Made by a program: the position numbers and the translations under genes
In this document: positions 9,921 through 64,000 of the stretch, piece after piece
Layout of the letters: each line of letters begins with the position of its first letter
Position numbering within the stretch: position 1 is the first letter of the stretch
The notes under the pieces: generated by a model
What the model was told of the DNA's origin: nothing
Seen by the model: the letters and a program-made list of their open reading frames with translations, nothing else
Databases searched by the model: none
Assembly: GCF_004010195.1 (NCBI RefSeq)
Contig: NC_057718.1
Coordinates: forward strand, 84,917,968 to 84,981,967
DNA length: 64,000 nt
Source: Chiloscyllium plagiosum
Taxonomy: Eukaryota
Direction of reading: 5' to 3'

Positions 9921-10002
9921 ATAACAACTCATACGTCGTGTTCATTTGTACTATTAATTCATCTATCTTACAAACACTGTGTGCATTCAATTAGAGTAAT
10001 TA

Positions 10003-15494: not shown

Positions 15495-15673
15495 ATGCGA
15501 AAGAGGAATAATTCCCTGATAGTAGAACATGACACGACCGTCACGACACTGCAAAAGGACTCCGTACATCTTGCACCAAGCTTGAAGCACAACCACAAAT
15601 CAGCAACTAGCAAAGGAAGTGATAACAACCTCGACATAGACGAAAAAACGGGAATGCGAACTGGTCATTGGAG
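15495..15673 (+). CDS. ABHD12: ABHD12 (lysophosphatidylserine lipase) coding exon 1
   Basis: MRKRNNSLIVEHD...LKHN...GMRTGHW resembles human MRKRTEPVALEHE...LKQN...GMKR; phase-2 donor AG|GTAAGA splices in frame to exon 2. Confidence 0.85.
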
Positions 15674-22449: not shown

Positions 22450-23970
22450 AAGAGTGTGGCATGAAGGAACCCTATCAAAACTAGCCAAAGATTTGGGGAG
22501 AACTTTCCACTGGTTTGAAGACATAACTAACACACAATTTGAGATTGTTGAAATTCTGTTATCTCTGCAGGAGTTCCTCAGGGTTGTTGCTTAGGCCCAA
22601 CCATCTTCAGCTGATTCATCAGTGACCTTCTTTCCATTGTAAAGTCAGAAATGGAGATGTTAGCTGACTGGGCTGAACATTATGCATTTAAGATTCTTGG
22701 GTACCGAAGCAATCTTTGTCCAAATGCAGCAAAATCTAGACAATTTCCAGATTTAGGCTGGCAAGTGATGAGTAATATTTGTCTACGTAAATGCCAGTTG
22801 ATGACCATCTCCAATAAGAGAATTTAATCACATTCAATAGTGGTGCCATCACTGAATCTTCCGCTATCAACATCCTTGGTGTTACCATTGACCAGGATTC
22901 CATGGGACTCACCGAATAAACGCAGTGGCTACAAGGGCAGGTTAGAGGCTCGGAATACTGCAACGAGTAATTTACCTGACTCCCCAAAATCTGTCTACCA
23001 TCTACAAGGCACAATTCAGGAGAGTGATAGAATATTCCCCACTTGTCTGGATGGGTATAGACTCAGCAATATGCTAATGTTCCAGGACAAGCAGTCTACT
23101 TGATTGGCACCTTGTCCACAAGCTTCCACTCCTCCACTAACGCTCTGCAGCAGCGTGCCACTACCGACAAGAAGCACTGGGGAAATTCACCAAAACTTGT
23201 AAGCACCTTTAAAACTCATAACTACTTCCATCGAGAAGGACAAGAGTAGCAGATAGATGGGAACATCACCTGCAAGAGCCCCTCTAAGCCATTTATCAGC
23301 ATGACTTGGAAATAAATCACCATTTCTTTGTCGCTGGATCAAAATCCTGGAATTCCCTCCCCAAGGGTGTTGTGGCTTAACCTACAGTGCATTGATGGTA
23401 GCAGCTCATCACCACCTTCTCAAGGGCAACTGGGGACAAGGAATAAATGTTGGCCAACCATCAATGTACATGCCCATGAGTGAATTTTCAAAAAAAAACA
23501 AAAGCAAGTCAGTCTTGGAGCCCTCACTTCCCACATACATGAATGAGCCCATTTCCAACAACAATCAAGATGCTTGACATCATCCAGGACAAAGCAGCCC
23601 ATCCGTCATTGACACCCAATAGCAGTTGTGTTCACTATTCACCAGGTGTACTGCAGAAATTCACCAAGACTCCTTAGATAATACCTTTCAAAACCACAGT
23701 GGCCACCTTGACGGACAAAAGCATCCGATACATGGCAACATCATCTGCAGGCTTCCCTCCAAGCAATTCAGCATCTTGGAAATATCACCATTCCTTCAGT
23801 ATCACAAGATCAAAATCCTAGAACTTCTGTATGCATTATGGGTCTCCCTGCACCAAATGGACTGTTGTTCAAGAAGGCAGCTCTCAATCACCACCTCAAG
23901 GGCAATTTGGATCGGCAATAAATTCTGTTTAGCCAGTGACACCAATATCCTGTGAGTGAATGTTTAAAAA
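22450..23970 (+). mobile_element. Two tandem decayed CR1/L2-group LINE 3' fragments
   Basis: ISAGVPQGCCLGPTIFS RT remnant; a shared 3' tail (CAGCTC..CACCACC..CAAGGGCAA..AATAAAT..GAGTGAAT) at ~23400-23490 and ~23875-23962. Confidence 0.65.
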
Positions 23971-29423: not shown

Positions 29424-30420
29424 GAGTTTGCACATTTTCCCTATGCCTGCTTGGGTTTCCTCCAGGTGCTCCGGTTTCCTCCTGCAGTCCAAAGATGTGC
29501 AGGTCACGTGAATTGGCCATGTTAAATTGCCCATAGTGTTAGGTACATTAGTCAGAAGGAAGTAGGTCTGGGTGGGTTACTCTTCGGAGGGTCAGTGTGG
29601 ACTTGTTGGGACAAAGGGCCTGTTTCCACACTGTAGGGAATCTAATCATAAAGATATACAGAATGGTCCAACTCATCCATGCTGACCAGATATCCCAACC
29701 CCAATCTAGTCCCATCTGCTAGGACCCAGCCCATATCCCTCCAAACCCCTCCTATTCATATACCCATCCCCCACATGCCTTTTAAGTGTTGCAGTCATAC
29801 TAGCCTCCACCACTTCCTCTGGCAGCTCGTTCTGTGCATGTACCACACTTTGCATGAAAAAGTTCCCCTCTCACCCAAAACCCAATGCCTTCTAGTTCTG
29901 GACTTTCTCACCCCAGGGAAAAGACTTTGTTTATTTATCCTATCCTATCCTATCCTATCCTAACCTATCCTATCTATGCCCCTCCTGACCTTGTATACTT
30001 CTATAAGGTCACCCCTCAGCCTCTGACTCTCCAGGGAAAACAGCCCCAGCCTATTCAACCTCTCCCCATCCCTCAAATCCTCCAGCCCTGGCAACATCCT
30101 TGTTAATCTTTTCTGAACCCTTGCAAGCATCACAGCATCTTTCCATAGGATGGAGACCAGAATTGCATGCAATATTCCAAAAGTGGCCTAACCAATGTCT
30201 TGTATAGCCGCAATATGACCTCCCAACCCCTGTACTCTATAGTGTCACCCATAAAGGAAAGCATACCAAACACCTTCACTATCTTATCTATCTGTGAATC
30301 CACTTTCAAGGAGCTCTGAGCCTGCACTTCAAGGTCTCTTTATTCAGCAACACTCCCCAAGACCTTACCATTAAGTGTATAAATCCTGCTAAGATTTTCT
30401 TTCCCAAAATGCATCACCTC
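29424..30420. mobile_element. 5'-truncated HE1 SINE (plus, ~29424-29647) tail-to-tail with a CR1 3' fragment (minus, ~29648-30420) containing (TATCC)n
   Basis: V-domain and AATCTAATC tail; minus ORFs LVRPLLEYCMQFWSP and RLNRLGLFSLESQRLRGDLIEVYK. Confidence 0.8.
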
Positions 30421-31731
30421 ACATGATTGAATAAACCTTTTTAAAAAATCAATGGTTTCCCCTCATGTGTGAACTTAGAATTGGTGTCAAAGTTAAAAAA
30501 TAACAAGCTTCCCATTTTACTGGAGAGGACGAATCTCTTATGGTCTTTATTCAAGGCTGAATTGGACATATTTATAATGGAGCTGAGGAAATGGAGGGAT
30601 GGAGATGGTAGGTAGGAAAATGGAATTAAGGCCATAATTAGATCAGCCATGATCATATTGAATGGGGGACTAGATTCAATGGGCTGAATGACCTACTCTT
30701 TGGGATACAGTTGAAGATCCGGTGAAACATTGCAACAGGTAGAAACGGCTTTGGATTTCATGTTTTTTTTAAGAAAAACGCTATGCAAATACACTGGACT
30801 GTTAGTAAGACGTGCATGATTTTAACAATTTATGCTATCTGGTTCAGAATGCCCAAAAGTTGCCAACTGAAAAGGATATGGAGAGAATTCAACTAACTAA
30901 ATATCAATTGACTTTATCTCCAATCTAAGATATTGGAATCCTTACTCAGATTAATTCAGCTAATTTATTTTCAAAAGTATAATGAATCCAGCATCTGGTA
31001 GCAATTGATGAAATAACCATAGCTGCTAATAATATGCAAATCCTTCACTACATCTTGTGATTAACCTAAAATCTGTGATCTCTTTTTTTCCCCCTCACCC
31101 GATGGTTATTTTTTCTCATTCAAGGCTGCTCCGAATCCCATACCAGCCTCACCATGCCTACATGCATGTTTATCAAGGGAGGGCTGCAAAATTATTATTT
31201 TTAAACAATCTCTATCCAAGGAGCACTGAGCTGATTGTAGCACAAATCTAGGATTGATGAAGGGTGCCCACACCAAATAGTGTATGGCTTTGTAACATTT
31301 GTCACATGTTTTGAGCTGATATTTTGGGAAGCTATGCTGCAAGTAACCAAAGTTTGAAGATATTTATCTCATCCAATTTAATTTTGTGAGCAGTTGACAT
31401 ATTTTCTGCAAATGAAACAAGTCATCATAATTTAAACTATAACTGGCAATTGGGCTAGAATTCAGTTTGCAAGATAAACAAATTCATGTTGACAGAATTT
31501 CTTTAAGGAAAGGTCATAGCATTCATTTTATGGAACTTTTCAGTATGAATTTGAGATGTTAAAATACATTATTCTTGTATCTTTTTTGGTTTTATTGATT
31601 ATACTTGATTTAAAATTAAGGATTCAAGTATGAACACAGAATTTCACTTCACTATTTGTGATGAATATAATGTTTCGTCTCTCTTTCTTTTTTTGTAGAG
31701 TGACTTTTTTTCTTTTGCTTCCACATTTTAG

Positions 31732-31853
31732 GCATTCTTGGCTTTACAGAATCAAGAAGCTAGCAGTGTGGTTGTTAGCCGTGTACATATGCATTCCTTT
31801 CATAGTAAAAATGTGCCCAGCTATTCAAGCCAAGCTGGTCTTCTTAAATTTTG
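31732..31853 (+). CDS. ABHD12: ABHD12 coding exon 2 (transmembrane segment)
   Basis: TTTTAG|G..; HSWLYRIKKLAVWLLAVYICIPFIVKMCPAIQAKLVFLNF vs human [39 protein letters not shown]; donor G|GTGAGT; phases 2/1 fit the neighbouring exons. Confidence 0.93.
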
Positions 31854-32940: not shown

Positions 32941-33100
32941 ATCTCTCCACTCTAGAGGCTTCCTGCCTCTATTCCTGATGAAGGGCTTTTGCCCAAAACT
33001 TCGATTTTCCTGCTTCAGATGCTGCCTGACCTGCTGTGCTTTTCCAGCACCACTCTGATCTAAACTCTGATTTCCAGTTTCCGCAGTCCTCACTTTTGCC
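32941..33100 (+). mobile_element. Solo PLE family A terminal repeat
   Basis: CTGATGAAGGGCTTTTGCCCAAAACTTCG plus tail; AATAAAG occurs on both sides (possible TSD). Confidence 0.75.
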
Positions 33101-33672
33101 AAATAAAGTTTCACGGTTGAACTCTAGCCGTAAGGTACAAGGGAGTCAACTGCTCTTCGAACCATATCCTAGTAACAGCATAGGTCCCCCAACTGCATGT
33201 AAGTGAACAAAATAGTACTGAAAATGATTATAATTTAGGGAATGGTGTAACGGGGTTCCAAGCTGCAGGCTTACGTAGGCTTTCAGATAATGAAAATGCT
33301 GTTTTTATTTTCCAGCAAATGTCTTTCCAAGTTAACTGCAAACAACTTTATGAACAGAATAAAACATTTTTAAATTTTAGTGGCCAAAATATTGATATCT
33401 TTATTACTATAAATTTTTAATGGAGTGGTTTTTATATTTAAATATTAGAGTGTACAAATTAGTATTTCCTATATCTTTTGAGGAAAAAAAATGATTTATC
33501 AGTAAATTAATTGGCTATTTTCTGCACAAAGTGCATTGGTCAAGATTTTGATAGGATTGCAATTTACGATTAAAAACAAATTATTATAGATTTGAATTTA
33601 TTCTATGTAATTGGTTTGTAGTCTTAATCATTTGAAAGCTCTAAAATTTTTATTGACACCTTTCTTTTGTAG

Positions 33673-33778
33673 TGCGGCTACCATATTTCATTGACTTGAA
33701 GAGGCCACAGGACCAAGGGTTGAACCACACATGGAATTTTTATCTTAAACCTGAAGAGACAATTACTATTGGTGCTTG
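33673..33778 (+). CDS. ABHD12: ABHD12 coding exon 3
   Basis: TTTTGTAG|TG; (V)[34 protein letters not shown](W) vs human [36 protein letters not shown]; 106 nt; donor TG|GTGAGT. Confidence 0.96.
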
Positions 33779-34957: not shown

Positions 34958-35632
34958 TCATAGAGTCATAGAGATGTACAGCATGGAAATAGACCGTTCG
35001 GTCCAACCCGTCCATGCCGACCAGATATCCCAACCCTTCCTATTCATGTACCCATCCAAATGCCTCTTAAATGCCGCAATTGTACCAGCCACCACTTCCT
35101 CTGGCAGCTCATTCTGTACACACACCACCCTCTGCGTGAAAAAGTTGCCCCTTAGATCTCTTTTTTTATATCTTTCCTCTCTCTCACCCTAAACCTATGC
35201 CCTCTAGTTCTGGACTCCCTGACCCCAAGGAAAAGACTTTGTCTATTTATCCTAACCATACCCCTCATAATTTTGTAAACCTCTATAAAGTCACCCCTCA
35301 GCCTCCGACGCTCCAGGGAAAACAGCCCCACCCTGTTTAACCTCTCCCTATAGCTCAAGTCCTCCAACCCTGGCAACATCCTTGTAAATCTTTTCTGAAC
35401 CCTTTCAAGTATCAAAACATCTTTCTGATAGGAAGGAGATCAGAATTGCACGCAATATTCCAACAGTGGCCTAACCAATGTCCTGGACAATCGCAACATG
35501 ACCTCCCAACTCCTGTACTCAGTACTCTGACCGATAAAGGAAAGCATACCAAACGCTTTCTTCATGATCCTATCTACCTGCGACTCCACTTTCAAGGAGC
35601 TATGAACCTGCACTCCAAGGTCTCTTTGTTCA
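34958..35632 (-). mobile_element. CR1-type LINE 3' fragment
   Basis: LERVQKRFTRMLPGLEDLSYRERLNRVGLFSLERRRLRGDFIEVYKIMRG; tail CTCTATGACTCTATGA. Confidence 0.88.
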
Positions 35633-35929
35633 TCAATTTAATAGAAATTGATGTCAAGCCACCAGATCTTTGTACAAAGAAATAAAACTTGATAACATCA
35701 TGTTACATAAATTACATAACAATAGAAGGAAATAAATTCTTAGTTTAAAGTGAAACAAAATTTCATGGCTGTTAAGAACTGGGAAGTACAGCTGTGTGGT
35801 AAGCTCTTTTAAAGAGCTATTACAACTGCAACCTTCTACACCACCTTTTGGTTTTGTAAGATGAAGTGTTGACAGCACCCACTCAATGCTTTTTAATGTT
35901 CTAGTTAACTTTGCACCCCAATTCCATGC

Positions 35930-36221: not shown

Positions 36222-37889
36222 CATTGTTCTTCTATCGTGTATATCTTCCTTAAATAAGCTTTTAAGCTGTTTAATTTCAAAAGATAGGAAGTCTTACATT
36301 TTCAGTAGCGTTGGAAATCAGTGCATTAAATACTTTTGAAGTGAGCAGCAGCCATTTGAACATGGCAGGTTCCCATGTGATAACGACCAGGTAATTGTAT
36401 TTCTGGCATTCTCTTAAAGGGAAGTTCTGACACAAGAAGCAGCTCTTTCAAATATTATTGCAATCTCTTACCTCACTGCTATCATCTATTAGAATCCCAA
36501 CAACAACTTTGATCCTGCATACTGTCTGCGCTGCCTACTCACTTGCTCAGGATACCTTCCCACCTACACTGTGCCATCCAGCTTAATTTCCCTTAATGCC
36601 TCCCTATTTAAGTCCACCATAGAACTGGAAGAATCCAGGGTAATGCCTGACATTTGGCTCCTAACCCCTGATGAGAAGATCTTCTCTTTCACTACCCTGA
36701 CCAAATCTAAGACCTTGGACTGATATTTGACGCTATCCTTGACTTGGCTGAGGAATGTTGATAATGTGGCAAGCTTCCTGGCTTTGTCTGTGCTAAATAG
36801 CATAGCAATGCAGCAGTACCATGAAGCTGGAATCTCTAGGTGAAGGGCCAGGCAAAGCAGGGATGCTGTGAGAATCCAGGTAGGCTAAGAGTGAGTGACT
36901 GCAATGAGAGTCAGTGAGCAGCCTGCAGATGTAGCCTGGCCTAATCCATGAGCTGGGTTTGTGTCCCTGAGTGCAAAGTGTCCTTGCTTCAGCATTACAA
37001 TAATATATAGTAGCCATTGCACACCAAGGTGCAGTGTTAAAGCGCAGAAGCATACTGAAAGTGAATTGATATGACATTGTTAGGTTTATGTTCTGTTGTT
37101 TTTTTTTCTTGAGATTCTTACACACTTGATGCAGCTGCAATGTGCCAGCTTCTGTGAACAACAACCAAATTTTATCAAGCACAGTGTGGTATAAACTTTC
37201 TGGAAGAACTTTTAAAACAGGGCTTGGCAGAGTCATGTCAAAGCTCTCTCTGAACAAAGGAAACAGTCCTTCCTTTATACAAAATATTTATGTCACAGTG
37301 ATGCCCCCAAGACAACCCCCAGCCAACCCCCCACAGTCACATGCCACTCAAGCCACAATGCAGTGACCTGATCATCTCTAGAAACAATATAATGTAAATC
37401 ACCCCTCAATGATCAAATCTATTGCAAATCATTTTTTTAACGACAGGGAGTAGTAAAATTCCAACTGTAATACTTTTATTGATTTCTGAATAGGGGATGA
37501 AAATGTAAATAAAAGGAGATGACAATGTAAATGGTTCTGAATAATAGGTGATTATGTAAATTGACTTACAAATAGATTGTAAGAAGAGGCATCCCACCCT
37601 AGCCTCGGAACATCTAAAAATGCAGGTCAGCAGAGCAAGTTAACTCTTTAATATCACAAAATAAGATTCTTGGGGCTGGTCCCTGTGGCCAAATCTCTGT
37701 CCCCAGAGATGTTAGTTCTTGGTGTCCAACATTTGGAGTAAGTAGCAAGCTAGAGTCATGAGGTACCCACACTGTCTTCCATGACACAACGTTTTGGTGT
37801 ATAGTTTGCTCACATTGGGTAATTGAATTAAAGTGAGATTACAATAGATATGATTTGGAAGTGTCGGTGTTGGACTGGGGTGTACAAAG

Positions 37890-38072
37890 TTTAAAAATCA
37901 CACAACTCAAGGTTATGGTCTAACAGGTTTATTTGGAAGCAATAGCTTTCACAGCGCTGTTCCTTCGTCAGGTGGTTGTGGAGTATACAGGTGATAAAGG
38001 AGCAGTGCTCCAAAAGCAAGTGCTTCCAAATAAACCTGTTGAACCATAACCTGGTGTTTTTTTTTCTAACTT
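37890..38072. mobile_element. Inverted pair of PLE family C terminal repeats
   Basis: GGTTATGGTCTAACAGGTTTATTTGGAAGCA... is mirrored by ...TGCTTCCAAATAAACCTGTTGAACCATAACC; degenerate hammerhead cores lie on the inner side. Confidence 0.75.
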
Positions 38073-38429
38073 TGCAATAGATAAGATTGTTAACAATCAA
38101 TGATCCCCTTCAAATGCAACTTACTGCTCCCTAGTGTGAGGCTTATCTTACACCTAGAACGTAGTTAAAAGATGCAGTGAGCTGCTGCTGACTCTTGAGA
38201 GAGGCTCACACAAGGAGTCTGGCTAGGCCCTTCACATTACTTGCGATAGCCCATGTCATTCAGATCTTTATAATCAGCCCCTTGTCAGTGCAGTGCCCCT
38301 TCAGTACTACAATGGAGTGTCCAGCTCTGATTGTTGTGCTCAAATACTTTATTCTCCTCATTTTGATTGAATGCAGAACCTTCCATTCTTTCAATAATGC
38401 TATCCTTGGTCATTGTCAGTCAAAGTCTA

Positions 38430-39005
38430 TCATGGTTGTGGGTATGTTCGCCAAGCTGGGAAGTTTATTTGCAGACATTTCGTCCCCTGTCTAGGTGACA
38501 TCTTCAGTGATTGGAGCCTCCTGTGAAGCGCTTGTGTCTTCTGGAATTTTATTGGTTCATTTTCTGCCACTTTTGGTTGCTGGTTCCAGTTGTTCATTGT
38601 AGTTGCCAGTATATTGGGTCTGTGTGTTTGTTGATGGAGTCTGTGGCTGAGTGTCATGCTTCTAGAAATTCTGTGGTTGTCCTATGATCATTGTGTTGTC
38701 CCAGGTGAATCTGTGGTCCTTGTCATGTGTGTATGGCTACTAAGGACAGCTGGCCTGGCGATTAATGGCTAGTTGGTATTTGTGGATGCAGATTGCTAGT
38801 TGTCTGCTTGTTTGCTCTATATATTGTTTTGTGCAGTTTCTGCATGGAATCCTGTAAATTACGTTAGTCTTGCACATGATTGGTATCGGGTTTTTTGTTC
38901 TGGCGAGTTGTTGCCTGAGTATGGCTGTTGGTTTATGGGCTGTCATGAATCAGAGATCAGGGAAGTCTGGCCATCAGTTCAGACTTTTTTATGTAAGATA
39001 GTGTG
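38430..39005 (-). mobile_element. PLE family B 3' fragment (GIY-YIG endonuclease and terminal repeat)
   Basis: NVIYRIPCRNCTKQYIEQT; terminal repeat similar to 60090-60260. Confidence 0.8.
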
Positions 39006-39804: not shown

Positions 39805-40601
39805 TGAGTCAGTCATAGAGATGTACAGCACAGAAACAGACTCTTTGGACCAATTCGTCCATGCTGACCAGATATCGTAAATTAACCTAGTCCCATTTGC
39901 CAGCACTTGGTCCATATCCCTCTTAAACCCTTTCTATTGATATACCCATTCAGATGTCTTGTTTTAAGTGTCTCCGCCTCCTCCATTTCCTCTGGCAGCT
40001 CATTCCATAATGCACCACATGCCTCTGTGTGGAAAAAGTTGCCCCTCAGGTTCCTTTTTAAATCTTTTCTCCTCTCACCTTACACCTATGTCCTCTAGTT
40101 TTGGATGCCCCCACTCTATGAAAAAGACCTTGCTGATTTACCCTATGCACGCTCCTCACTTAATAAACCTCTGTAAGGTCATCGCTCAGCCTCCTCTTCT
40201 CCAAAGAAAGCATCATTCCTGATGAAGGGCTCTTGCCTGAAACATCTGTTCTCCTGCTCCTCGGATGCTGCCTGACCTGCTGTGCTTTTCCAGCACCCCA
40301 TTCTCGACTCCAGGGAAAACAGCCCAGCCTATTCAGTCTCACCTTATTGCTCCAACCCTCTAACCTTGGCAGCATCCTTGTAAATCTTTTCTGAACCCTT
40401 TCAAATTTCACAACATCCTTCCTGCAGGAGGGAGACCCAGAGTTGCATACAATATTCCAGACGTCGCCTAACTAATGCCCTGTACAGCTGCAACACGACC
40501 TCCCAAATCCTATACTCAATGCTCTGACCGATAAAGGCAAGCATACCAAACACCTTCACTGTCCTATCTACCTGCAACTCCACTTTCAAGGAGCTATGAA
40601 C
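39805..40601 (-). mobile_element. CR1 3' fragment containing an inserted solo PLE family A unit (40214-40310, plus)
   Basis: ERVQKRFTRMLPRLEG..RLNRLG; the insert begins CATTCCTGATGAAGGGCTCTTGCCTGAAAC. Confidence 0.8.
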
Positions 40602-44589: not shown

Positions 44590-46925
44590 GATCAGGTTAT
44601 CTGTTTGCTTGCTGAACAGGTGGTTTGTTTTCAGACATTTCATTAGCATGCTAGGTAACATCAGTGAGCCTCCTGTGAAGCTTGGTGTTCTGTTCTGCTT
44701 GCTATTTGATTCTTGATCTGTGGTGGTGGTATCACTTCCGGTTCTGTTTGAGAGGTTGGTAAATGGGATCCAAATCTGTGTGTTAATGGAGTTCTGGTTT
44801 GAATTCCAGACATCTGTGAATTCCCCCCCACATCTTTGTTTGGCCTGTACCACAATGGAAGCATTGACCCAGGTGAACTGGTGTCCTCTTTCATCTGTGT
44901 ATAGATACCAGTGATAGTTGGTCATGTATCCTGGTAGCTAGTTTCCTGCCGGTTTGTCCAATGTACTGTTTGCTGCAGTCCTTGCAGGGTATTTTGTACA
45001 TTATGTTCATTCTCCTGGCTGTTGGTACAGGGTCCTTTAAAATCCTAAGTAGCTGTTTTAGTGTGGTAGTAGGTTTTTGGGCTAGCATTATGCCTAGGGG
45101 CCAGAAGAGTCTGGTGGTCATCTCTGAAATGTCTTTGTATGGTAGGGTGACTAGAGCCTCTGGGGGTGTTGTCTTCCTGTTTAGGTCTGTTGTGCAGGAA
45201 TCGGCAGACTGCGCATATCGGCTAACCATTGTTTCCGAATACTTTGTACAGCTGTTTCTCCTCTGCTTGTATTTCCAGGGTGCTGCATTGTATTGTGGCT
45301 CATTTAGATAGTGTCCTGATGCAGCTCCATTTGTGGATGTTGGAATGGTTGCTTTTATAGTTGTTTGGTCAGTGTGTGTGACTTTACTATAAATGCTAGT
45401 TTGCTGTTCTCCATTGGCTTTTCATTCTACCATGATGCCCAAGATAGGGAGTTGGTTATTGTTCACTTGCTCTTTGGTGAACTTTGTACCGGTAAGCATG
45501 TTGTTTGTGATTGTGGGTTCCTTCTAGTTTGTCATGTTTCGTGATGACAAAGATGTCATCTGCATAGTGGACCCAAAGCTCAGGCTGAATTGTGGGAAGG
45601 GCTGTTTGTTCTAACCTTTGCATAATCGCTTCTGCTCTGAGTCCTGATGTTGGTGATTCCATAGGCATCCTGTTGATTTATTTGTTTATCTTGTTGAAGA
45701 TGAAGTGGATTGTGAGGCATAGTCCAGTGGTTTGAGCAGCCTGTTCTTGCTAATTGGAATTGGTGCTGTCAAGTGTTTGTCTCTGGTTTGTCTAGCAGTG
45801 TGGCCTCAAACTACTGGACCTGTACCCCTCAACCTACGTTACCTTCAATGGCAAGATATACAACCAAATCAACGGGATGCCTATGAGATCAACAATATCA
45901 GGACTTATAGCAGAAGCAGTTATACAGAAGTTAGAACGAACAACCTTTCCCGTGATCCAGCCTAAGCTTTGCATCCGCTATGCGGATGACTCCTTTGTCA
46001 TCACGAAACGTGACGAACTAGGAGAAACCCACAAACAGCATCCTCGCCAGTATGAAGTTCACCAAAGAGGAAGAGAACAATAACCAACTCTCCCCCTTGG
46101 ACGTCACAGTAGAGCGAAAAGCCAATGGAGAACTGCAGACCAGGAAAGCCACACGCTGACCTGATACTCAACTACAGAAGCAATTTTCTCGTTACCCACA
46201 AATTGAACTGCATCAGGACACTATCTAAATGAGCCATAACACACTTCAGCTTCCTGGAATTACAAGAAGCAGAGGCGAAACACCTATACAACGTGTTTAG
46301 GAACAACAATTACCCAATAAGTGCAGTCCACTGATCCCTAAACAGGAAGACACAACACCTCAGAGATTCTAGTCATCCAACCATACATGAAAGACCTTTC
46401 AGAGATGACCACCAGCCTATTCTGGCCCCTGAGCACTATAGTAGCCCACAAACCACCTACCACACTAAATTTGTCAGTAACTGTTTTATATATAGGACCC
46501 TGTACTACAGGCAGCAGAACGAACGTAACATGCACCATACCCTGCAAGGACTACAAAAGTCATTACATTGGACAAACTGGCAGGAAACAAGCCACCAGGG
46601 AACATGACCAACTGTCACAGAAGTACACTAATTTGACTGAGACATTGCATCCATGCGTGGGAATTCCTAGAGGCCTGGCATTCAAACCAGAATTCCATTA
46701 ACAAGCACAGATTCAGACCCCAATTACCAACCTCTCAAACTGAACCAGAAATGATATCAGTCACCCCAACAGACCAAGACACACACATAGCAAGTGGAAC
46801 AGAACACCAACGCTTCACTGGAGGCTCACTGGTGATGTTACCTAGCATGGTGACGAAATATCTGAAAACATAGCCACCAGCTCAAAGAGCAAACAGGCAA
46901 CCTGATCAACAAATCTTCTCCAAAA
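44590..46925. mobile_element. Back-to-back PLE family B-like copies (minus ~44590-45735, plus ~45795-46925)
   Basis: WVHYADD / CIRYADD RT motifs and YKIPCKDCSKQYIGQTGR / TIPCKDYKSHYIGQTGR GIY-YIG motifs on opposite strands; hammerhead-like CTGGTGATGTTACC..GGTGACGAAA at ~46829-46859. Confidence 0.85.
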
Positions 46926-46944: not shown

Positions 46945-48365
46945 TGAACATCCATGTACAGAGGTATCTGGGTGTACAGGTCCCCAATTCCCTGAAAGTG
47001 ATAACGCAAGTGGATAAGGTGGTTAAGAAGGCATATGGCATGCTTGCCTTCATTGGTCAGGGCATAAAGTACAAAATTGGCAAATTGTGTTGCAGCTATC
47101 CAGAATTTTGGTTAGGCCACATTTGGAATATTGTGTACAGTTCTGGTTGCCATGCTATAGAAGGAATTGGGGATTTTGGAGCAGGTGCAGCGTAACAGTA
47201 TGCTGCTAGGCTTGGAGGGTATTAACTGCGAGGAGAGATTTGCTTTCACTTAAATGTTGAAGACAGAGGAGTAATCTCATAGAAGTTGACAAAATTATGT
47301 GAGACATTTATAGATAGTTGGAGTCTTTTTCTTTCTCTCTCTTTCCTGCACCCCCCCACACCCCCACCCAGGATAAACATGTCAATAACCAGGGGACATA
47401 GTTTTATGGTAAACAGGGGCAAGTTTAAAGGAAGTGAGAAGCAAGTTTGCTTTTTACACAAAAGGTACTAAGCGCCTGGAATGCATCTCAAAGGAGGTGG
47501 TGGAGGTGGATGCAATAGCAATATTGAAGAGGCATCTTGACAGATAAATGAATAGGCAGAGAATAGAGGGAGGCAAATGGCATACAGGCAAACTGCTTTT
47601 AAGTTTAGAAAGACATCATGTGTTAACATTAGTCTTGATACTCCAAAGGACCTGTTCAGTGTTGTTCATTCTTAATGTTACAGAACAGTGAGATTTGGTA
47701 GTCCTTGTGCATGAATTTCAAAAAGCTAGCACCCAGGTGAGTGAGTATCGTGGAGGCAAATGGAATGCTGGCCTTTATTTCAAAAGGAAAGGAGTGTAAA
47801 ATTAGGGAAGTTTTGCAAAACCATACAAGGGACTAAGCCCACAGCTGGAATACTGAGAACAGTTTTGGAATCCTTTATCTAAGGATAAATATGCTGGCAT
47901 TGAAGACAATCCAGTAAAGGTTCTCTTGGCTGATGCCATGTATGGAGAGTCTGCCTGATGAAGAAAGATTGAGTAGTTTGGACCTGTACTCTTTGGAATT
48001 TCTAAGAATCTATAAGAATGAAAGTGACCTTATTAAAACACAATATTCTTGGGGCAAAAAGAGTAGCGCTGGAAAAGCCCAGCAGGTCAGGCATCATCCA
48101 AGGAGCAGGAGAGTCAACGTTTCAGGCATAAGCCCTTCATGAGGAATGCTTGTTTCCCCTGATAGGAGAGTCTAGGACCAGAAGATGTAATTTCAGAATA
48201 AAGAGTCATTAAGTACATTCGTGGAGAAGATAGATTTTGATCAATAAGGCAATTGAGGGTTGTAGAGGAAAGTGGAGTCAAGGATTATTAGCCATGGTCT
48301 TGTTGATTGGCAGAGCACACTCAGGCTGAATTACCTAATTCTGCTCCTACATCTTATGGTCTGAT
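46945..48365 (+). mobile_element. Two CR1 3' fragments; the second contains a solo PLE family A unit (48060-48148, minus)
   Basis: QVDKVVKKAYGMLAFIGQGI; EERLSSLDLYSLEF; the insert ends ..GCCCTTCATGAGGAATG. Confidence 0.75.
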
Positions 48366-48694: not shown

Positions 48695-49370
48695 AGTAGA
48701 CAGACAGGAAGCTGGAAGAACACAGCAAGACAGGCAGCATCATAAGATGCAGAAGTTGATGTGTCGGGTGTAACCCTTCAGGACTGGGGGTGGATATGCA
48801 GGGAGCTGCAGATAAAGGGGGAAGTGGGGGCAGGGTGGTGAAGTGGGTATAGGTAAAGACAGGTAGAGGGTATGACTTGGTTGGTTAATGGGAGGAATGA
48901 ATCTAGTTGGTGGCAGGGAGTAGTGGAAGGGAGGGAGGAGGGGCTGGGAAGGGAGTTGGGGGATTGGGAGGGAATTTATTTGAATTTGGAGAACTCAATG
49001 TTGAGTCCTTTGGGCTGTAGGGTGCCCAGGTGGCAGATAAATTGTTCTTCAAATTTCAAATAACCTCCCTCCCCATCCCTGACTCTCTTCCCAGACCCTC
49101 CCCCTCCCTTCCACTGCTCCTTGCCATCAAACAAATTCATTCCTTCCCATTGACCAACTAGGTTGTACCCTCCATTTGTCTTCTCTTTGTCTATCCCCAC
49201 TTCACCACCCTGCCCCATCTCCCACTTGATCTACCACTCTCCAGTCCTGCAGCAGGGTTACACCTGAAATGTCTACTCCTGCACCTCCTGATACTGCCTG
49301 GCTTGTTGTGTTCTTCCAGCCTCCTGCCTGTCTACTTTGGATTCCAGTATCTGTAGTTTTATTTTGTCAT
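48695..49370. mobile_element. Inverted PLE terminal-repeat pair, ~330-bp arms
   Basis: AGTAGACAGACAGGAAGCTGGAAGAACACAGCAAG at the left mirrors CTTGTTGTGTTCTTCCAGCCTCCTGCCTGTCTACT at the right; centre ~49050. Confidence 0.75.
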
Positions 49371-49519: not shown

Positions 49520-52500
49520 TAATCGGGATAAGGGATAACACTATAGCTGTACTTGGGGAAGATATTCCTGTGAATATGTCCAGGGAAGTCATTTGGGTGG
49601 AACTGAGAAATAAGAAAGAGATGAGCACTTCATTGGGATTGTACTATAGACCCCCCCCCCCACCGCAACCTCCATCGTCAGCAGGAAATTGAGAAACAAA
49701 TTTGGAAGGAGATATCAGTTATCTGTAAGAATAATAGAGTGGTTATGGTAGGGGATTTTAACTTTCCAGACAGACTGGGACTGCCATTGTGTTAAGGGTT
49801 TAGGTGGAGAGGAATTAAAGTTTGTACAAGAACATTTTCTGATTCAGTGTGTGGATGTACCTACTAGAGAAGGTGCAAAACTTGACCTACTCTTGGGAAA
49901 TAAGGCTGGGCAAGTGACTGATGTATCAGTGGGGGAGCACTTCAGGTCCATTAACCATAATTCTATATAAGTTTTTAAAATAATGATGGAAAAGGATAGA
50001 TAAGATCTAAAAGTTGAAATTCTAAATTAGAGGAAGGTCAATTTTGACAGTGTTAGGCAAATACTTTCGAAAGTTGATTGGGGGCGGAATTTTGCAGGTA
50101 AAGGTACGTCTGGTAAATGGAAAGCCTTCAAAAATGAGGTAACAAGAGTCTAGAGACAGTATGTTCTGTTATGGTGAAAGGCAAAACTGGTAGGTGCAGG
50201 GAACACTGGATAACTAGAGAAATTGAAGTTTTGATTAAGAAAAAGAAAGCGTATACCAAGTATAGATGGCAGAGATGGAATGAATCTTTAGAATATAAAG
50301 ACAGTAGGAGTGTACTTAAGAGGGAAATCAGGAGGCCACAAAGGGGACCTGAGTAGGGTTAAGGAGAATCCAAACCTATTTTATGATACATTAAGGTCAA
50401 AAGGCTAACTCTGGAGAGAATAGGGTCTGTTGAAGACCAGCTAGGCAGCAGATGTGTGGAACTGCAGGAGATGGAGATACTAAACAAATATTTTGCATTA
50501 GTGTTTACTGTGGAGAAGAACATGGGAGATATAGAATGTGAGGAAATAGATGGTGACATCTTGAAAACTGTCCCTATTACAGAGGAGGTGGAACTGTATG
50601 TGTCAGAATGCATAAAGGTGGATAAATCCCCAGGACCAGATCAGGTGTACCCTAGAACTATGGGAAGCTAGGGAAGTGATTGCTGGGCCCCTTGCTGCGA
50701 TATTTATATCATCGATTATTACAGATGAAGTGCCTGAAGACTGGAGGTTGGCTAACGTGGTGCCACTATTTAAGAAAGGTGCCAAGGAAAAGCCAGGTGA
50801 GCCTGGCATTGGTGGTGGGCAAGTTTTTGTAGGGAATCTTGGGGGACATGATTGACATGTATTTGGAAAGGCAAGGACTGGTGGCGTTGTGTGGAAAATT
50901 GGTCTCTCTGACTTGATTGAGCTTTTTGAAGAAGTAACAAAGAGGATTGATAAGAACAGAGTGGTGGACGTGATATACATGGACTTCAGAAAGGTGTTCG
51001 ACAAGGTTTCCCATGGTCGACTGATTATGAAATAGAATTAAAATCCTTACAGTGTGGAAACAGGCCTTCGGCTCAACAAGTCCACACTGACTCTCCAAAG
51101 AGTAACCCACCCAGACACGTTCCCCTATCCTATATTTGTCCCTAACTAATGCACCTAACCTACACATCCCAATGGGCAATTTAGCATGGCCAGTTGACCT
51201 AACCTGCACATCTTTGGACTGTGGGAGGAAACTGGAGCACCCGGACGAAACCTGCGCAGACTCCACACAGGCAGTCGCCTGAGTGGAATTGAAACCAGGT
51301 CCCTGAAGCTATGTGGCAGCAGTGCTAGTTACTGAGCCACCGTGCCACCCCAAAGTTAGATCAGATGGAAAGGAGGGAGAATGAGCTATTTGGATATAGA
51401 ATTGGCTCAAAGCTAGAAGACAGGGTGGTGGTGGAGGGTTGCTTTTCAGACCTAGGCCTGTGATCAGTGATGTGCCATAAGGGTGCTGAATCCACTGCTT
51501 TTCGTCAGTTATGTAAATGATTTGAATGTGAACATACAAGATATAGTTAATAAGTTTGCAGATGACTAATTTGGCAGGGGGCTGGGAACCAGAAGAAAAG
51601 ACTACTAGACAGTGAGGTGGAAACTGAGACTGTAAGGATCATGAAATTAGCTTTATCAAGGGGAAGAGCAGGCAGAGAGCAGATGAAAGCAAAAGAACTG
51701 GTGGCCTTGAGTGCATATATTTTAATGCAAGGAGTATAATGGGGTAAGGCAGATGAATTTAGGGCTTGGATTGGCATCTGGGAGTATAACGTTATTGCGA
51801 TCATAGAGACTTGGTTGAAGGAAGAGCATGATTGGCAACTAAGTGTTTCAGGATATAGGTGCTTCAGACAGGACAGGGAGGGGGAAGAGTTGCATTGCTG
51901 GTTAGGGATGATATCATGGCTGTGCTAAAGGAGGACACTTTGAGGGCTTGAGCAGCGAGACGTTATGGGTGAGGCTGAGAAATAAGGAGGGTGCAGTTAC
52001 ATTGGTGGGGCTGTATTACAGGCCTCCCAACAGTGAGCGTGAGGTAGAACAGCTAGATAAACCGATTATGGGAAGATGTAGAGGCAACAGGGTGGTGGTG
52101 ATGGGAGATTTTAATTTTCCCAACATTAACTGGCATGGACTTAGTGTCAGAGGTCTGCATGGAGCAGAATTTGTAAGGAGCATACAGGAAAGTTTTCTCG
52201 AGCATTATGTCAATAGTCCAACCAGGGGAAGCAGCTATATTGGACCTGGTGTTGGGGATTGAGCCAGGCCAGGTGGTAGAAGTTGCACTGAGGGAATTTC
52301 TTTGGGAATAGTGACCACAATTCTGTAAGTTTTAGAATACTTGTAGGCAAAGATGAGAGTGGCCCTGAGGGGTAAGTACTAAACTGGGCCAAGGCCAATT
52401 ATGTCAAAATTTGGCAGGAGCTGGGAAATGTGGATTGGACACAGCTATTTGAAAGAAAGTTCACATTTGATATATGGGAGGCTTTCAAAGGTAGGTTGAA

Positions 52501-55500
52501 GATAGTGCAACATAGGCATATTCCTTTGAAAACAAAGGATAGGAAAGGCAAGATTCGTGAACTGTGGATGATAGGAGAAATAGTGTGACTAGCCAAGAGG
52601 AAAAGGGAAGCGTACATAAGGTCCAGGCAGCTAAGAACAAAACTGGCCTTGGAGGAATATTGGGAGAGTAGGACCAATCTTAAATGAGGAATCAAGCAGG
52701 CTAAAAGGGGTCATTAAATAACTTTAGCGAGCAGAATTAAGGAGAATCCCAAGGCCTTCTCTTGCTTCTTACAGAAGAATAAGGTAACCAGAAAAAGGGT
52801 TGGTCCACTAAAAGATAAGCAAGGAAGGTTGTGTGTCGAACATGAGAAAATTGGTGAGATTCTCAATGATTACTTTTCACCAGTGTTCACTGAGGAATGG
52901 GAAGTGATGAATGCTAAGATTAGAAGTAGAAGTTTATTTACTCTAGATCACGTTGACATGAGGGAAGATACGTTGGATAGACTGATGTCAGTGGTGGGAA
53001 AGTTGCTGGAGAAGGTACTGAGGGATAAAATCGATCTATATTTGGAAAAGAATGGGTTTATCAGTGATAGGCGTTAAGGTTCTCCATGGTAAACTAATGT
53101 AGAAAGTGAAGTCACATGGTGTGCAGGGTGTTCTAGCTAGATGGGTAAAGAACTTGAGCAACAGGAGACAGAAGTAGTTGAAGGGAATTTCTCAAAATGG
53201 AGAACGGTGACCAGTGGTGTACCACAGGGATCAGTGCTGGGGCCACTGTTGTTTGTAATGTACATAAATGATCTGGAAGAGGGCATTGTTGGTCTGATCC
53301 GTAAGTTTGCAGATGACATGAAGATTGGTGGAGTAGCAGAAAGAATAAGGGACTGTCAAAGAATACAGGAGAATATAGATAGACTGGAGAGTTGGGTGGA
53401 GAAGTGGCAGATGGAGTTCAATCCATGCAAATGTGAGGTGATGCATTTTGGGAAGTCTAATTCTAGAGCGAGCTATATAGTAAACTGAAGAGCCTTGGGA
53501 AAAGTTAGCAGAGAGATCTGGGAGTTCAGGTCCATTGTACCCTGAAGGTGGCTGCACAGGTGGATAGAGTGGTCAAGAAGACATATGGTATGCTTGCCTT
53601 CATCGGCCGGGATATTGGGTGTAAGAAATGGCAGGTCATGTTAAAATTGTACAAGACTTTGGTTTGGCTGCATTTAAAATGCTCTGCACAGTTCTGGTCG
53701 CCACATTACCAAGAGGATGTGGATGCTTTGGAGAGGGTGCAGAGAAAGTTTACAAGGATGTATTCTGCTTTGGAAGATGCTAGCTATGAAGAGAGGTTGA
53801 GTAGGTTAGGATTGTTTTCATTAGGAAAAAGCAGATTAAGTTGGGAACCTGACTGAGGTCTACAAAATCATGAAGGGTATAGACAAGGTAGATAGAGATA
53901 AGGTATTTCCCAGGGTGAGGGATCCAATGAAGAGCGGTCACAGGTTCAAGGTAAGAGGTGAAAAGTTTTTAAGGGGGATGTATGTGGCAAGTACTTAGCA
54001 CAGGGTGACAGGTGCCTGGAATGCATTGCCAGTAGAGATAGTAGAGGCAGGCACAGTAGATTCATTTAAGGTGTGTCTGTGCAGATGCATGAATAGGTGG
54101 GGAGCAGAGGAATTGGGCGATAGGTTTAGACAGGGAATTTGGATCGCTCAGGCTTGGAGGGCCGAAGGGCCTTTTCCTCAGCTGTAAATTTTCTTTGCTC
54201 TTTTTGTGACACCTAAATTGGAGGTGCAGTAGACAGCAACAAAGGTTTCCTCCAAATACAATGGGATCTCGATCAGGTGGGCCAGTAGGCTGAGGAGTGG
54301 CAGCTGGAGTTTAATTTAGATTAATGTGAGGTGCTACATTTTGGAAGGGTAAATCAGGGTAGGACCTGTACACTTAATGGGAAGGTCCTGGGGATTGTTG
54401 GTGAACAAAGAGACCTTGGAATGGAGGTTTGTAGTTCCTTGAATATGGGGTAGCATGTAGATAAGATAGTGAAGAAGGCGTTTGGTGTGCTGTCCTTTTA
54501 TTGGTCAGAGCATAGAATATAGGAGTTGGGAGGCTAATTTGTGGCTGTACGCGACATTGGTTCGGCCACTTTTGGAATACTGCATGCAGTTTTGGTCTCC
54601 CTCCTGTAGGAAGGATATTGTGAATCTTGAAAGGGTTCAGAAAAGATTTACAACAATGTTGCCAAAGTTGGAGGGTTTGAGCTATAGGGAGAGGCTGAAT
54701 AGGCTGGGGCTGTTTTCCCTGGAGTGTCGGAGGCTGAGAGGTGACCTTAAAGAAGTCTACGTAATCATGAGGGGCATGGATAGGATAAATACCCAGGTCT
54801 TTTCCATGGGGTGGGGAGTCCAGAACTAGAGGGCATAGGTTTAGGGTGAGAGGGGAAAGATTTAAAAGGGACCAAACGGGCAACCTTTTCGCACAGAGGG
54901 TGTTGCACATATGGACAATAGACAATAGGTGTAGGAGTAGGCCATTCTGCCCTTCGAGTCTGCACTACCATTCAATATGATCATGGTTGATCATCCTTAA
55001 TCAGTATCCTGTTCCTGCCTTATCTCCATAACCCTTGATTCCACCATCCTTGAGAGCTCTATTCAACTCTTTTTCTTAAATGAATCCAGAGACTGGGCCT
55101 CCACTGCCCTCTGGGGAAGAGCATTCCACACAGCCACCACTGCCTGGGTGAAGAAATTTCTCCTCATCTCTGTCCTAAATGGTCTACCCAGTATTTTTAA
55201 GCTGTGTCCTCTGGTTTGACACTCGCCCATCAGCGGAAACATGTTTCCTGCCTCCAGGGTGTCCAATCCTTTCATAATCTTATATGTCTCAATCAGATCC
55301 CCTCTCAGTCTTCTAAACTCCAGGGTATACAAGCCCAGTCGCTTCACTCTCTTCAACTGTGGCGTAATCACTTCACTTAACCTCCTTGTCAAAGACTCCT
55401 GAGCTAAAGCCTCACTCTTCAATCCACAGGAACTTCCTTGGACCCTCTTTTTGGGGCAAGTCTGTGGACTTTTAATTTAGGTTAGAAGAGGTGCCTTCCT

Positions 55501-59743: not shown

Positions 59744-59863
59744 GCACACAGTACCTGCCAGTCTATGGAAGGAAGCTCAGGGAAAGGACCAAATGTGGTA
59801 TGAAGGGACTTTGGCATTAGGCAATCCTATCATTCTTTACTTCCATGGCAATGCAGGCACCAG
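59744..59863 (+). CDS. ABHD12: ABHD12 coding exon 4
   Basis: Branch-point-like [54 protein letters not shown](R) vs human [40 protein letters not shown]; 120 nt; donor AG|GTAAGA. Confidence 0.96.
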
Positions 59864-60087
59864 GTAAGAAGTTGGATGATTTGTAAAATCTCAAACTGGT
59901 TCCTTCCGAACTTTCTCATGATGTAACCCAGACTGAAAATATTGAGATGAGGATGAAGAGTATAGTTACAGAGCAATTGATGTAGTAGAATTTGAAATCA
60001 TTGACTCCCCTTTTGAAATAATATGATCATGGCAGCAACTGGGCCTCTGCGAACAGGTGGCTGAGTCACACTATTCAACAGAAAATA

Positions 60088-61315
60088 TGTTGTGGTTCTG
60101 TTTGCCAAGCCGGGAATTTGTGTTGCAGATTTTTCGTCCCCTGTCTAGGTGACATCCTCAGTGCTTGGGAGCCTCCTGTGAAGCGCTTCTGTGATGTTTC
60201 CTCCGGCATTTATAGTGATTTGTACCTGCTGCTTCCGGTTGTCAGTTCCAGATGTCCGCTGCAGTGGCCGGTATATTGGGCCCAGGTCGATGTACTTATT
60301 GATTGAATCTGTGGATGAGTGCCATGTCTGTAGGAATTCCCTGGCTGTTCTCTGTTTGGCTTGTCCTATAATAGTAGTGTTGTCCCAGTCGATATCATGT
60401 TGCTTGTCATCTGAGTGTGTGGCGACTAAGGATAGCTGGTCATGTCGTTTTGTGGATAGTTGGTGTTCACGGATATGGACCGTTAGCTGTCTTCCTGTTT
60501 GTCCTATGTAGTGTTTTGTGCAGTCCTTGCATGGGATTTTGTACACTAAATTGGTTTTGCTCATGCTGGGTATCGGGTCCTTCGTCCTGGTGAGTTGTTG
60601 TCTGAGAGTGGCTGTTGGTTTGTGTGCTGTTACGAGTCCTAGTGGTCGCAGTAGTCTGGCTGTCAGTTCAGAAATGTTTTTGATGTATGGTAGTGTGGCT
60701 AGTCCTTTGGGTCGTCGCATGTCTTCATTCTGTTGTCTTTCCCTGAGGCATCTGTGGATGAAATTGCNNNNNNNNNNNNNNNNNNNNNNNNNNNNNNNNN
60801 NNNNNNNNNNNNNNNNNNNNNNNNNNNNNNNNNNNNNNNNNNNNNNNNNNNNNNNNNNNNNNNNNNNNNNNNNNNNNNNNNNNNNNNNNNNNNNNNNNNN
60901 NNNNNNNNNNNNNNNNNNNNNNNNNNNNNNNNNNNNNNNNNNNNNNNNNNNNNNNNNNNNNNNNNNNNNNNNNNNNNNNNNNNNNNNNNNNNNNNNNNNN
61001 NNNNNNNNNNNNNNNNNNNNNNNNNNNNNNNNNNNNNNNTCATGTTGCTTGTCATCTGTGTGTGTGGCTACTAAGGATAGCTGGTTGTGTTGTTTCGTGG
61101 CTAGTTGGTGTGGCTAGCTGGAACTGACAACCGGAAGCGGCAGATATAAATCACTATAAATGCCGGAGGAAAGATTACAGAAGCGCTTCACAGGAGGCTC
61201 CCAAGCACTGAGGATGTCACCTAGACAGGGGACGAAACGTCTGCAACACAAATTCCCAGCTCGGCGAACAGAACCACAACAACGAGCACCCGAGCTACAA
61301 ATCTTCTCCCAAACT
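60088..61315 (-). mobile_element. Relatively young PLE family B with GIY-YIG ORF, inverted terminal repeat (61113-61315, plus) and 14-bp TSD
   Basis: Open frame 60145-60720 with LVYKIPCKDCTKHYIGQTGRQL..REH; TTCAACAGAAAATA at 60074-60087 and 61316-61329; spans an N gap. Confidence 0.9.
61205..61244 (+). ncRNA. Minimal type I hammerhead ribozyme motif in a PLE terminal repeat
   Basis: GCA-CTGAGGA-T-GTCACC-TAGACA-GGGGAC-GAAACGTC-TGC: intact core, stem I GCA/TGC, stem II, palindromic ACGT arm, GUC triplet ending at 61241. Confidence 0.75.
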
Positions 61316-62529
61316 TTCAACAGAAAATAAATCTGGACCTTTAAAGAAATCTTGCAGGAAATCAAAATTGAAAGAGTACAAAGATTTATCGGGCAGAAGG
61401 TGGTTACATAGATACAGAGGTATGAAGCTGTCAGGGAATTGAAAGCAAGGAAGAGAATTTTAACAGTGTGCTAATATTTTCAAAGTGCAATATGTCACAT
61501 CTAGTTTTAAAAACTGTAGGTGCAATTCTATATTTTTGTGTTCTTGAGGGTCAAAGATTAGAAATAACTACAAGGGAAGATTTCCCAATTGATTTAGCTT
61601 TACTGTAATAACAAACGTGAATATAAAAATGTTGACAGTTGTTACAAAGAGCAACAAGGGAAGCTTACACAAAATAAGAGTGTTTATAACATAAGCAGGA
61701 AAGAGAAGTGAATATGACTTTTTAAAAAACCTTTATTATTCAGCTGGCAAGCAACTCTTAGCTCAGGTTCGGACTAAGAAAATCATCAATCACAATATGT
61801 AATTGGTAAGAAGAATGTTATGAAGTTGATCATGGGGTCAATCAGCCACTGCAAAGTTTCTGTTATTCCATTTAGTTCTAGCCATTATGAGTCAGGGTTT
61901 CTAGCTTATAAGTCAGTTGGCTTTTTAGTAATAAAAATGTAATTTTTCCAACTTGCACATAACAATCTCTTCAGTTTTGAAATTAAATTTTGCAGAGATT
62001 GCATTTTCATGTCTCAACTCTGCCTAGATGTTATCTGTCACCAGATTTATTGCAACTGAAATGTCTCAGTTTCCAATTGTTTCCAATTTTCAAAGTTTTA
62101 AAGTCAGCAGCAAATTTACGTAGATTCTTCCAGATGTCTAGAATTGCATGAAGACTCTTTCCTATTTTATCATAGTTGATTTCTCAAACCTGCTTAATTA
62201 GTTAATTGTGTTTAGCAGCTCAACAAAAACAAATGTTGAATCCTGATTTTTTTGGGCAGAGTGATTAAAGTTGAATTCTACAGAGAACAACAGATACAAT
62301 TTCTGATCAGAGAAGCAATTGAGCATTAGCAGGGAACATAACACTACATTTGCCTGATTGATCTACACGAAACCAGCAGGCTACCTGCCTTTGGGAGGCA
62401 GTAGTGTAGTTGTAATGGTAGTGGATTAGTAATCCAGAAATCTGGTTAAATGTGCTGGCCTCGTGGGAATTGAATCTCACCATGGGAATTGGTGAAATTT
62501 GAAATCTGTTAAGAATTTGGAATAAAATG

Positions 62530-63108: not shown

Positions 63109-63199
63109 AATGTTAGCTAATGGTAACAAAGTAACCACTATTGATTTGGTTTTTTTGGGTTATTAGCATCCTTTTAGAGACATAGAGTCGTACATATCT

Positions 63200-64000
63200 C
63201 AGCAAGAGGCTCAGCAATCACTTCTCTAGCTTCCCACAGAGTTCTCGGGTGCACCTGATCAGGTCCTGGGGATTTATCCAGCTTTAACCGTTTTAAGACA
63301 TCCAGCACTTCCTCTCTGTAATCTGGACATTTTGCAAGATGTCACCATCTATTTCCCTACAGTCTATATCTTCCATATCCTTTTCCACAGTAAATACTAA
63401 TGCAAAATATTCATTTAGTATCTCCCCCATTTTCTGTGGCTCCACACAAAGGCCGCCTTGCTGATCTTTGAGGGGCCCTATTCTCTCTCTAGTTACCCTT
63501 TTGTCCTTAATATATTTGTAAAAACCCTTTGGATTCTCCTTAATTCTATTTGCCAAAGCTATCTCATGTCCCCGTTTTGCCCTCCTGATTTCCTTCTTAA
63601 GTATACTCCTAGTTTCTTTATACTCTTCTACGGATTCACTCGATCTATCCTATCTATACCTGACATATGCTTCCTTCTTTTTCTCAACCAAACCCTCAAT
63701 TTCTTTAGTCATCCAGCATTCCCTATAACCTACCAGCCTTCCCTTTCCCCTGACAGGAATATACTTTCTCTGGATTCTTGTTATCTCATTTCTGAAGGCT
63801 TTCCATTTTCCAGCTGTCCCTTTACCTGCGAACATCTGCCTCCAATCAGCTTTTGAAAGTTCTTGCCTAATACCATCAAAATTGGAATTCTCCAGTTTAG
63901 AACTTCAGCTATTAGATTTGGTCTGTCCTTTTCCATCACTATTTTAAAACGAATAAAATTATGGTCGCTGGCCCCAATGTGCTGCTCCACTGACACCTCA
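63200..64000 (-). mobile_element. CR1 ORF2 fragment (region between APE and RT), running off the window
   Basis: SDHNFIRFKIVMEKDR; ANRIKENPKGFYKYIKDKRVTRERIGPLKDQ..EILNEYFALVFT. Confidence 0.88.

Follow-up and report, generated by a model that had tools for sequence, protein, structure and literature searches.

Minimal hammerhead ribozymes that can cleave as dimers are known from the terminal repeats that Penelope-like elements (PLEs) carry, one point of the earlier sequence-only reading of the DNA studied here that is established in the literature. Their cleavage as dimers is low (PMC4209133), and the small PLE hammerheads that cleave in this way have a short palindromic stem III (Lünse, Weinberg and Breaker 2017, as cited in the review PMC6765202). 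The closest described systems are the minimal hammerheads of metazoan PLE pLTRs reported by Cervera and De la Peña in 2014 (PMC4209133), in the text of which every trait listed by the sequence-only reading is already present. They share with the three families described below (A, B and C) the type I minimal core, an unpaired base between positions 9 and 10.1, the G10.1-C11.1 pair and the palindromic positions 15.2-16.2, as well as the coexistence of multiple families in one genome, pairs of copies on opposite strands at distances of 100-700 bp and a majority of solo truncated copies. Such motifs were reported in the fish elements Xena, Poseidon and Neptune, and the accessible text of the paper names no shark. 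The genome of the shark Chiloscyllium plagiosum differs by its copy number, with about 68,000 pattern matches where coelacanth has about 4,000 copies and Xenopus 9,000 (by different counting methods), and by shorter stems, of 2-3 bp for stem I and 4-6 bp for stem II; the stem I published for Schistosoma has 4-5 bp.

In the Poseidon element PAc from Anolis (Frangieh et al. 2024, PMC11167929), as probably in family B, two internal reverse transcription start sites define the tail, and both target strands are cut and extended. Protein-assisted cleavage of PAc was obtained in vitro, and that study found no RNA ends at the cut site. As in family B, the PAc ORF begins within the ribozyme, at stem II, about 26 nt upstream of the cut site, but a stop codon inside loop II is a feature of family B of which the accessible text of the study makes no mention for PAc. 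Neptune-clade PLEs (Craig et al. 2021, PMC8557442) carry a CX2-5CxxC linker before GIY-YIG, as does family A and, in decayed form, family C; this linker marks Neptune and Nematis. The insertions described in that paper show 5' truncation, an inverted 5' copy and a tail of 30-40 bp, like the copies analyzed here, but the sharp 5' boundary at the ribozyme edge reported below is absent from its available text, which calls the role of the PLE hammerhead unclear. Finally, non-LTR retrozymes (bioRxiv 10.64898/2026.07.22.740005), present in one chondrichthyan genome according to the part of the preprint at hand, are also PLE-derived and carry a type I hammerhead. They are head-to-tail tandem units, whereas the present copies are dispersed or back-to-back and harbor ORF remnants; the absence of such tandem units in the analyzed DNA led us to reject an identity with retrozymes. 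A literature search, with subscription papers, Repbase and supplements outside its scope, returned no paper describing shark PLE hammerheads or such a 5' boundary.

The window analyzed here is a stretch of 64,000 nt of C. plagiosum (NC_057718.1, positions 84,917,968 to 84,981,967). An intact minimal type I hammerhead motif of family B lies on its plus strand at 61205-61244, as judged from its sequence, its matches in the genome and the fold of the monomer. It comprises stem I (GCA, 61205-61207, and UGC, 61242-61244), the first core segment (61208-61214), an extra U (61215), stem II (61216-61221/61228-61233) and GAAA (61234-61237), and its letters match the sequence-only reading as written. The core CUGANGA...GAAA...UH, the criterion for type I hammerheads, is complete at 61208-61241, and the cut site is predicted at 61241/61242. 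The stem II of that reading is present, but it carries a fixed internal A·G mismatch between 3 bp and 2 bp, found in 70 of 77 family B copies. Older relatives of the family lie at 46827-46877 (+) and 22405-22451 (-); in the first of these, whose motif is at 46835, the 6 bp of stem II are all paired, so that the mismatch of young family B looks derived. Among the 17 window motifs aligned, the one with its core at 61208 is, in our reading of the alignment, alone in keeping core, stem II, stem I and palindrome. A scan of the window with Rfam gave 10 weak matches at E<=10, with no hammerhead among them. The Rfam hammerhead models expect a closed stem III. By every sequence feature tested, the motif at 61205 is a PLE minimal hammerhead.

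The motif belongs to a single outward-facing PLE insertion, 60088-61315, which can be delimited as one unit because it is flanked by identical 14-bp target-site duplications (60074-60087 and 61316-61329). Such duplications are typical of outward-facing family B pairs: duplications of at least 9 bp flank 50 of 64 pairs versus 2 of 64 controls. The right arm (61118-61315, plus strand) contains an ORF 3' end, the ribozyme and a long tail, and forms an inverted repeat with the left arm (60088-60251/61118-61281, 164 nt, 94% alike). The left arm (60088-60767, minus strand) consists of a GIY-YIG endonuclease fragment (60765-60148) and a short tail, and runs into an assembly gap of 272 N (60768-61039) that no listed contig spans. 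In Atlas, the top matches of this endonuclease frame are GIY-YIG clusters (score 0.96; 15-20% of their members carry the family), and a Pfam search of the fragment gave no real match. The left arm also carries a sister family B motif (60125-60164, minus strand, at 60161), antisense to the host gene, whose stem III palindrome is broken. On the other side of the gap lies a second endonuclease fragment (61040-61117, minus strand), 90% like 60395-60466. The resulting 72-nt direct repeat (60395-60466/61040-61111, 90% alike) flanks the gap and may be a partial tandem or an assembly collapse. The structure of the insertion would be explained if the PLE endonuclease cut both target strands at the insertion site, with reverse transcription starting within the tail on both sides and the resulting cDNAs being joined; such double-ended priming and joining would leave two outward-facing ribozyme copies.

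Genome-wide pattern searches gave 54,284 matches for family A, 4,144 for family B and 9,522 for family C, with 0 for each reversed-pattern control. Tail motifs gave 157,179 (A), 6,112 (B) and 30,571 (C) matches, again with all reversed controls at 0, for totals of about 68,000 motifs and 194,000 tails. A genome-wide search and per-family alignments had been proposed as a check by the sequence-only reading, and the results bear out its claim of three families with a shared core and differing stems; the stems remain complementary. The core is intact in 57/85 A, 52/77 B and 40/62 C copies. The extra unpaired base after A9, which had also been noticed, is present in all copies (85/85, 77/77 and 62/62). 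The families have a loop-less stem III reduced to a palindrome at 15.2-16.2, CG in A and B and GC in C. Stem I is open and flanks the core, with 3 bp in B and C, and 2 bp plus a mismatch in A. G10.1-C11.1 is kept across families, and the pairs at 10.2/11.2, 10.3/11.3, stem I and 15.2/16.2 change between families with complementarity kept. Within families, compensatory changes at 10.2/11.2 are rare (4/85 in A, 3/62 in C) and could be double CpG-type decay. Core bases in the genomic copies decay about as fast as the remaining bases (0.967 versus 0.954 in A, 0.979 versus 0.962 in B and 0.961 versus 0.950 in C), in a sample that is tail-selected and hence biased to young copies. A tally of family C copies keeping core plus stems (8/62) was dropped as an alignment-edge artefact.

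The attribution of the three families to PLEs also holds, since in all three the motif is located at the 3' terminus of PLE coding sequence. Family B motifs are found downstream of a GIY-YIG-like frame and of a reverse transcriptase (Pfam RVT_1, E 1.2e-10, locus L096), and locus L259 contains a decayed but near-complete family B ORF. Family A motifs lie 80-350 nt past homologs, in the same orientation, of an ORF that encodes a CX4CX2C linker and a GIY-YIG domain (L093 and linked copies; a Pfam search of L093 gave nothing useful). Family C motifs follow a reverse transcriptase thumb-like piece 36% identical to that of family A, with coding evidence limited to fragments. The linker before GIY-YIG is present in A (L093) and decayed in C (L174), a motif shared with Nematis, and the CX2-5CxxC motif occurs in none of the family B translations, L259 having a gap at that point. 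By these motifs, family B appears Poseidon-like and families A and C Neptune-like. At two loci (L174:1650-2800 and L289:3700-4660), family C copies pass into the 3' region straight from flank or from the linker region, with the endonuclease frame absent, the L174 copy having an internal deletion; these copies are possibly a non-autonomous subfamily. Other PLE traits present are the pLTR, the inverted 5' copy and the optional tail. Each family has two clusters of 3' ends, for example at about +76 and +115 in B, which match the optional 30-40 bp tail and the internal reverse transcription starts published for other PLEs (PMC11167929, PMC8557442).

Taken together, the motif is very probably a minimal hammerhead sequence within a truncated PLE terminal repeat. 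The active element would likely cut its tandem RNA slowly, as a dimer or with the help of its own protein, and the 61205 copy itself is likely a passive intronic remnant. In a swapped dimer, as hammerhead topology implies, stem III and stem I would both form between molecules, and the family-specific stem I would then limit pairing to the own family. On paper, heterodimers of A and B through their shared ACGU are rejected, as stem I would not pair.

The 5' ends of the copies were mapped in 1.33 Mb on copies chosen by their tail alone; 19 family A and 6 family B rows at N gaps were dropped, and one family A row is a duplicate. They lie at -12 to +2 of the first base of the core in 75/160 A and 53/109 C copies versus 1/114 B copies, whose ends spread upstream, and at -20 to -13 in none of the A and 2 of the C copies. 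The letters preceding the A and C boundaries are unique flank or inverted arm. The commonest start of family A is 4-5 nt before the core, in what we take, from the consensus, to be an initiator-like context. Among 28 family A copies keeping the four pre-core bases, an extra G before the boundary, as expected for a cap signature, was counted by eye in 9 cases versus 3 with A. An internal promoter is known in the Penelope element of Drosophila virilis (PMC2377424). Our preferred reading of the A and C boundary is a transcription start, and most A and C stubs would likely have been copied from element RNA with an uncut front end; the boundary may also be a stall of the reverse transcriptase at the end of stem I.

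Starts within 2 nt of the cut site were found in 13/160 A, 6/114 B and 2/109 C copies. For family B, a genome-wide pattern requiring three non-family bases before the tested position gave 42 matches at the cut site, compared with 13 at a control position 5 nt downstream and 12 at one 5 nt upstream. On inspection, true junctions were 21/30 at the cut site, 9/13 downstream and 5/12 upstream, the latter with 3 long jumps in addition. Family B copies begin at the cut site about threefold more often than at the controls, a hint to be read with 6 of the 21 rows being symmetric joins on the UGCA palindrome and the upstream control being blind to the matching ACGU joins. In family A, the counts were 808 at +28 (with true junctions in 24 of the 30 inspected), 1,316 at +33 and 124 at +23, the last two as raw counts; scaling by exact-match rates (45, 72 and 27 of 149 at +28, +33 and +23) gives about 2,100, 2,700 and 690. 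There is thus no genome-wide +28 peak over +33 in family A, where +28 is also confounded by a GA microhomology to the opposite arm, and no enrichment at the cut site in family C (2/109 copies at +27 to +31). Near position 1500 of loci L346 and L350, the tail of a family B copy ends almost directly against a sequence that starts at the cut site, in the same orientation; such a join may have arisen by re-priming on RNA that was cut or circular.

A tentative extension of the main reading brings the two types of ends together. The boundary of the Neptune-like families would be the transcription start, and their stubs would be uncut front-end RNA copied through internal initiation of reverse transcription on the first repeat. 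Starts at the cut site would be a fossil of cleavage in cells, and in the Poseidon-like family the cut would remove the start codon and turn a message into a template. This scheme is possible, though we hold it to be doubtful as a whole. It draws on an 11-nt overlap in family B (61214-61224, plus strand, from the translation), where the ORF start AUG is formed by A9, the extra U and G10.1, and the UAG stop of the upstream ORF lies in loop II, 8 nt further on. At locus L237, the frame opened by this AUG enters the N-terminal region of the reverse transcriptase, with one stop on the way.

The same overlap is central to the strongest rival explanation, in which the family B motif is no longer an effective ribozyme and has been kept for the ORF start and stop, perhaps also as a promoter or a protein-binding site. 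This dual coding is shown, the A·G mismatch is fixed in stem II whereas the 46835 relative is fully paired, and stem I has just 3 bp. Moreover, stem II is unstable in context: with longer flanks the pairing probability of the B stem II is <=0.02, whereas those of A (0.91-1.0) and C (0.6-0.9) persist. The 44-nt monomer forms both stems, with an energy of -10.2 kcal/mol that is no better than that of shuffles (z -1.15). The active dimer appeared in none of the co-folds. RNA evidence comes from one single-cell poly(A) run, of which about 2% was read, from a type of library that loses 5' cleavage products and fragments ends. It gave 342 reads on the element, 89% of them continuing into other loci, with a depth at the motif of 141 versus 11 by strand, taken as sense RNA, and a unique intron depth below 2. 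Reads of the family cross the cut site uncut with no pile of starts or ends reported, which is weak evidence in such a run. In PAc, ribozyme mutants leave insertion unimpaired in vitro (PMC11167929). However, PAc has the same AUG-in-ribozyme layout and cleaves once the protein is added (same source), the commonest family B form keeps the full core, the extra base, the palindrome and stem I, and about threefold more B copies start at the cut site than 5 nt on either side. We therefore regard a lost ribozyme function in family B as unlikely, and the reading as a minimal hammerhead of a PLE terminal repeat is retained.

Turning to the other copies, a scan of the window recovered the A and C motifs of the sequence-only reading at the places it listed. 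In family A, a copy in GINS1 intron 1 (8783-9009, +) has a broken core (U4 to G), a stub at 9999-10122 (+) is decayed, and two back-to-back stubs at 10955-11179 have a broken core (11080, minus) or have lost stem I (11087, plus). An intergenic stub (13700-13826, -) starts from the first base of the core and keeps core and stem II without stem I. The core is broken at 32941-33102 (+, G12 to A) and 48060-48150 (-), and palindrome and stem I are lost at 40213-40310 (+). Family C is represented by a copy with a broken core (20156-20340, -) and by two back-to-back stubs (37850-38078), one truncated (37991, plus) and the other (37971, minus) with the motif present as reported but stem II broken, whereas the usual family C form pairs 5 bp. 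A loose scan, with 20 core-like matches, added two family B copies absent from the earlier list, the sister motif at 60161 (-) and an older copy with an endonuclease fragment (38435-39005, -) whose palindrome is altered (38507). The claim of more than 10 motifs in 64 kb stands as a count (17 aligned from the window), but only one of the 17 is fully intact. Further older hammerhead families, one of them with an AUAU palindrome, lie at 17612-17732 (-), 18900-19090 (+), 48784 (-) and 49247 (+), with tails related to family A. A long imperfect inverted repeat at 48843-49193, with weak Rfam scores for plant miRNA models far below the gathering scores, probably consists of a pair of PLE 3' regions, rich in pyrimidines and inverted relative to each other. 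The window also contains dispersed repeats of other kinds that are 76-82% alike (49919-50706 with 63191-64000, and 29740-30424 with 35028-35636 and 54324-54905) and are probably fragments of LINEs. Similarity to the other loci compared covers about 48% of the window.

The first coding exon of GINS1 (PSF1) lies at 9396-9470 on the minus strand (PDB phmmer E 9e-11). A splice-site scan identified host exons on the plus strand at 15493-15673, 31732-31853, 33673-33778 and 59744-59863, the last just upstream of the insertion, and the next one about 4.4 kb past the window. By human motifs, we assume that these exons belong to ABHD12 and that 59744-59863 is its exon 4; neither Pfam, for the four host exons, nor Atlas, where the best host exon score of 0.86 is a lead only, confirmed the name. 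GINS1 and the gene presumed to be ABHD12 form a head-to-head pair (9470-15495), with about 6 kb and four family A stubs between their start codons. Of the many copies that had been placed in GINS1 or ABHD12 introns, 12 are indeed in ABHD12 introns, but GINS1 has only one (8882), and four lie between the start codons.

The 61205 copy is in sense to ABHD12, as had been noted, and lies about 1.3 kb into the host intron. Being intact, it could have been co-opted to cut the ABHD12 pre-mRNA and tune host expression; its right-flank junction also occurs in further data sets from this species (runs X1 and X6, where X1 may be the sample of the assembly itself). Several observations make this very improbable. 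The insertion is young, with arms 94% alike, and since the core is intact in 52/77 B copies, an intact copy needs no selection. Beyond the window, the ABHD12 span contains two further sense family B copies, both broken, so that no partner was found in cis; in the 264 kb of window and neighbors, no intact same-family partner was found on the ABHD12 sense strand. In addition, we infer that an intronic cut need not affect splicing. The relevance to GINS1 and ABHD12 implied by the sequence-only reading is not borne out, as the copies are nearly all decayed and without such a partner.

An origin of the motifs by chance resemblance to a short consensus, as the lack of Rfam hammerhead matches and several loose stemless CTGANGA...GAAA matches in the window might suggest, is refuted and has a negligible probability, given 13 strict descriptor matches in the 264 kb versus 0 in 11 controls (the reversed sequence and 10/10 shuffles) and about 68,000 genome-wide family matches versus 0. 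All 13 matches have the extra base, and the descriptor misses family B because of its stem II mismatch.

The hammerheads of C. plagiosum extend the class described in 2014 to more families, and a role in the host genes is unlikely. With about 68,000 motifs and 194,000 tails, the 5' ends of the copies can be mapped base by base, which makes the RNA start and the copying of cut RNA testable. If the proposed switch is true, cutting would strip the start codon from the downstream RNA and convert a message into a template in a Poseidon-like family, and the genomic copies would then record the RNA life of the element.
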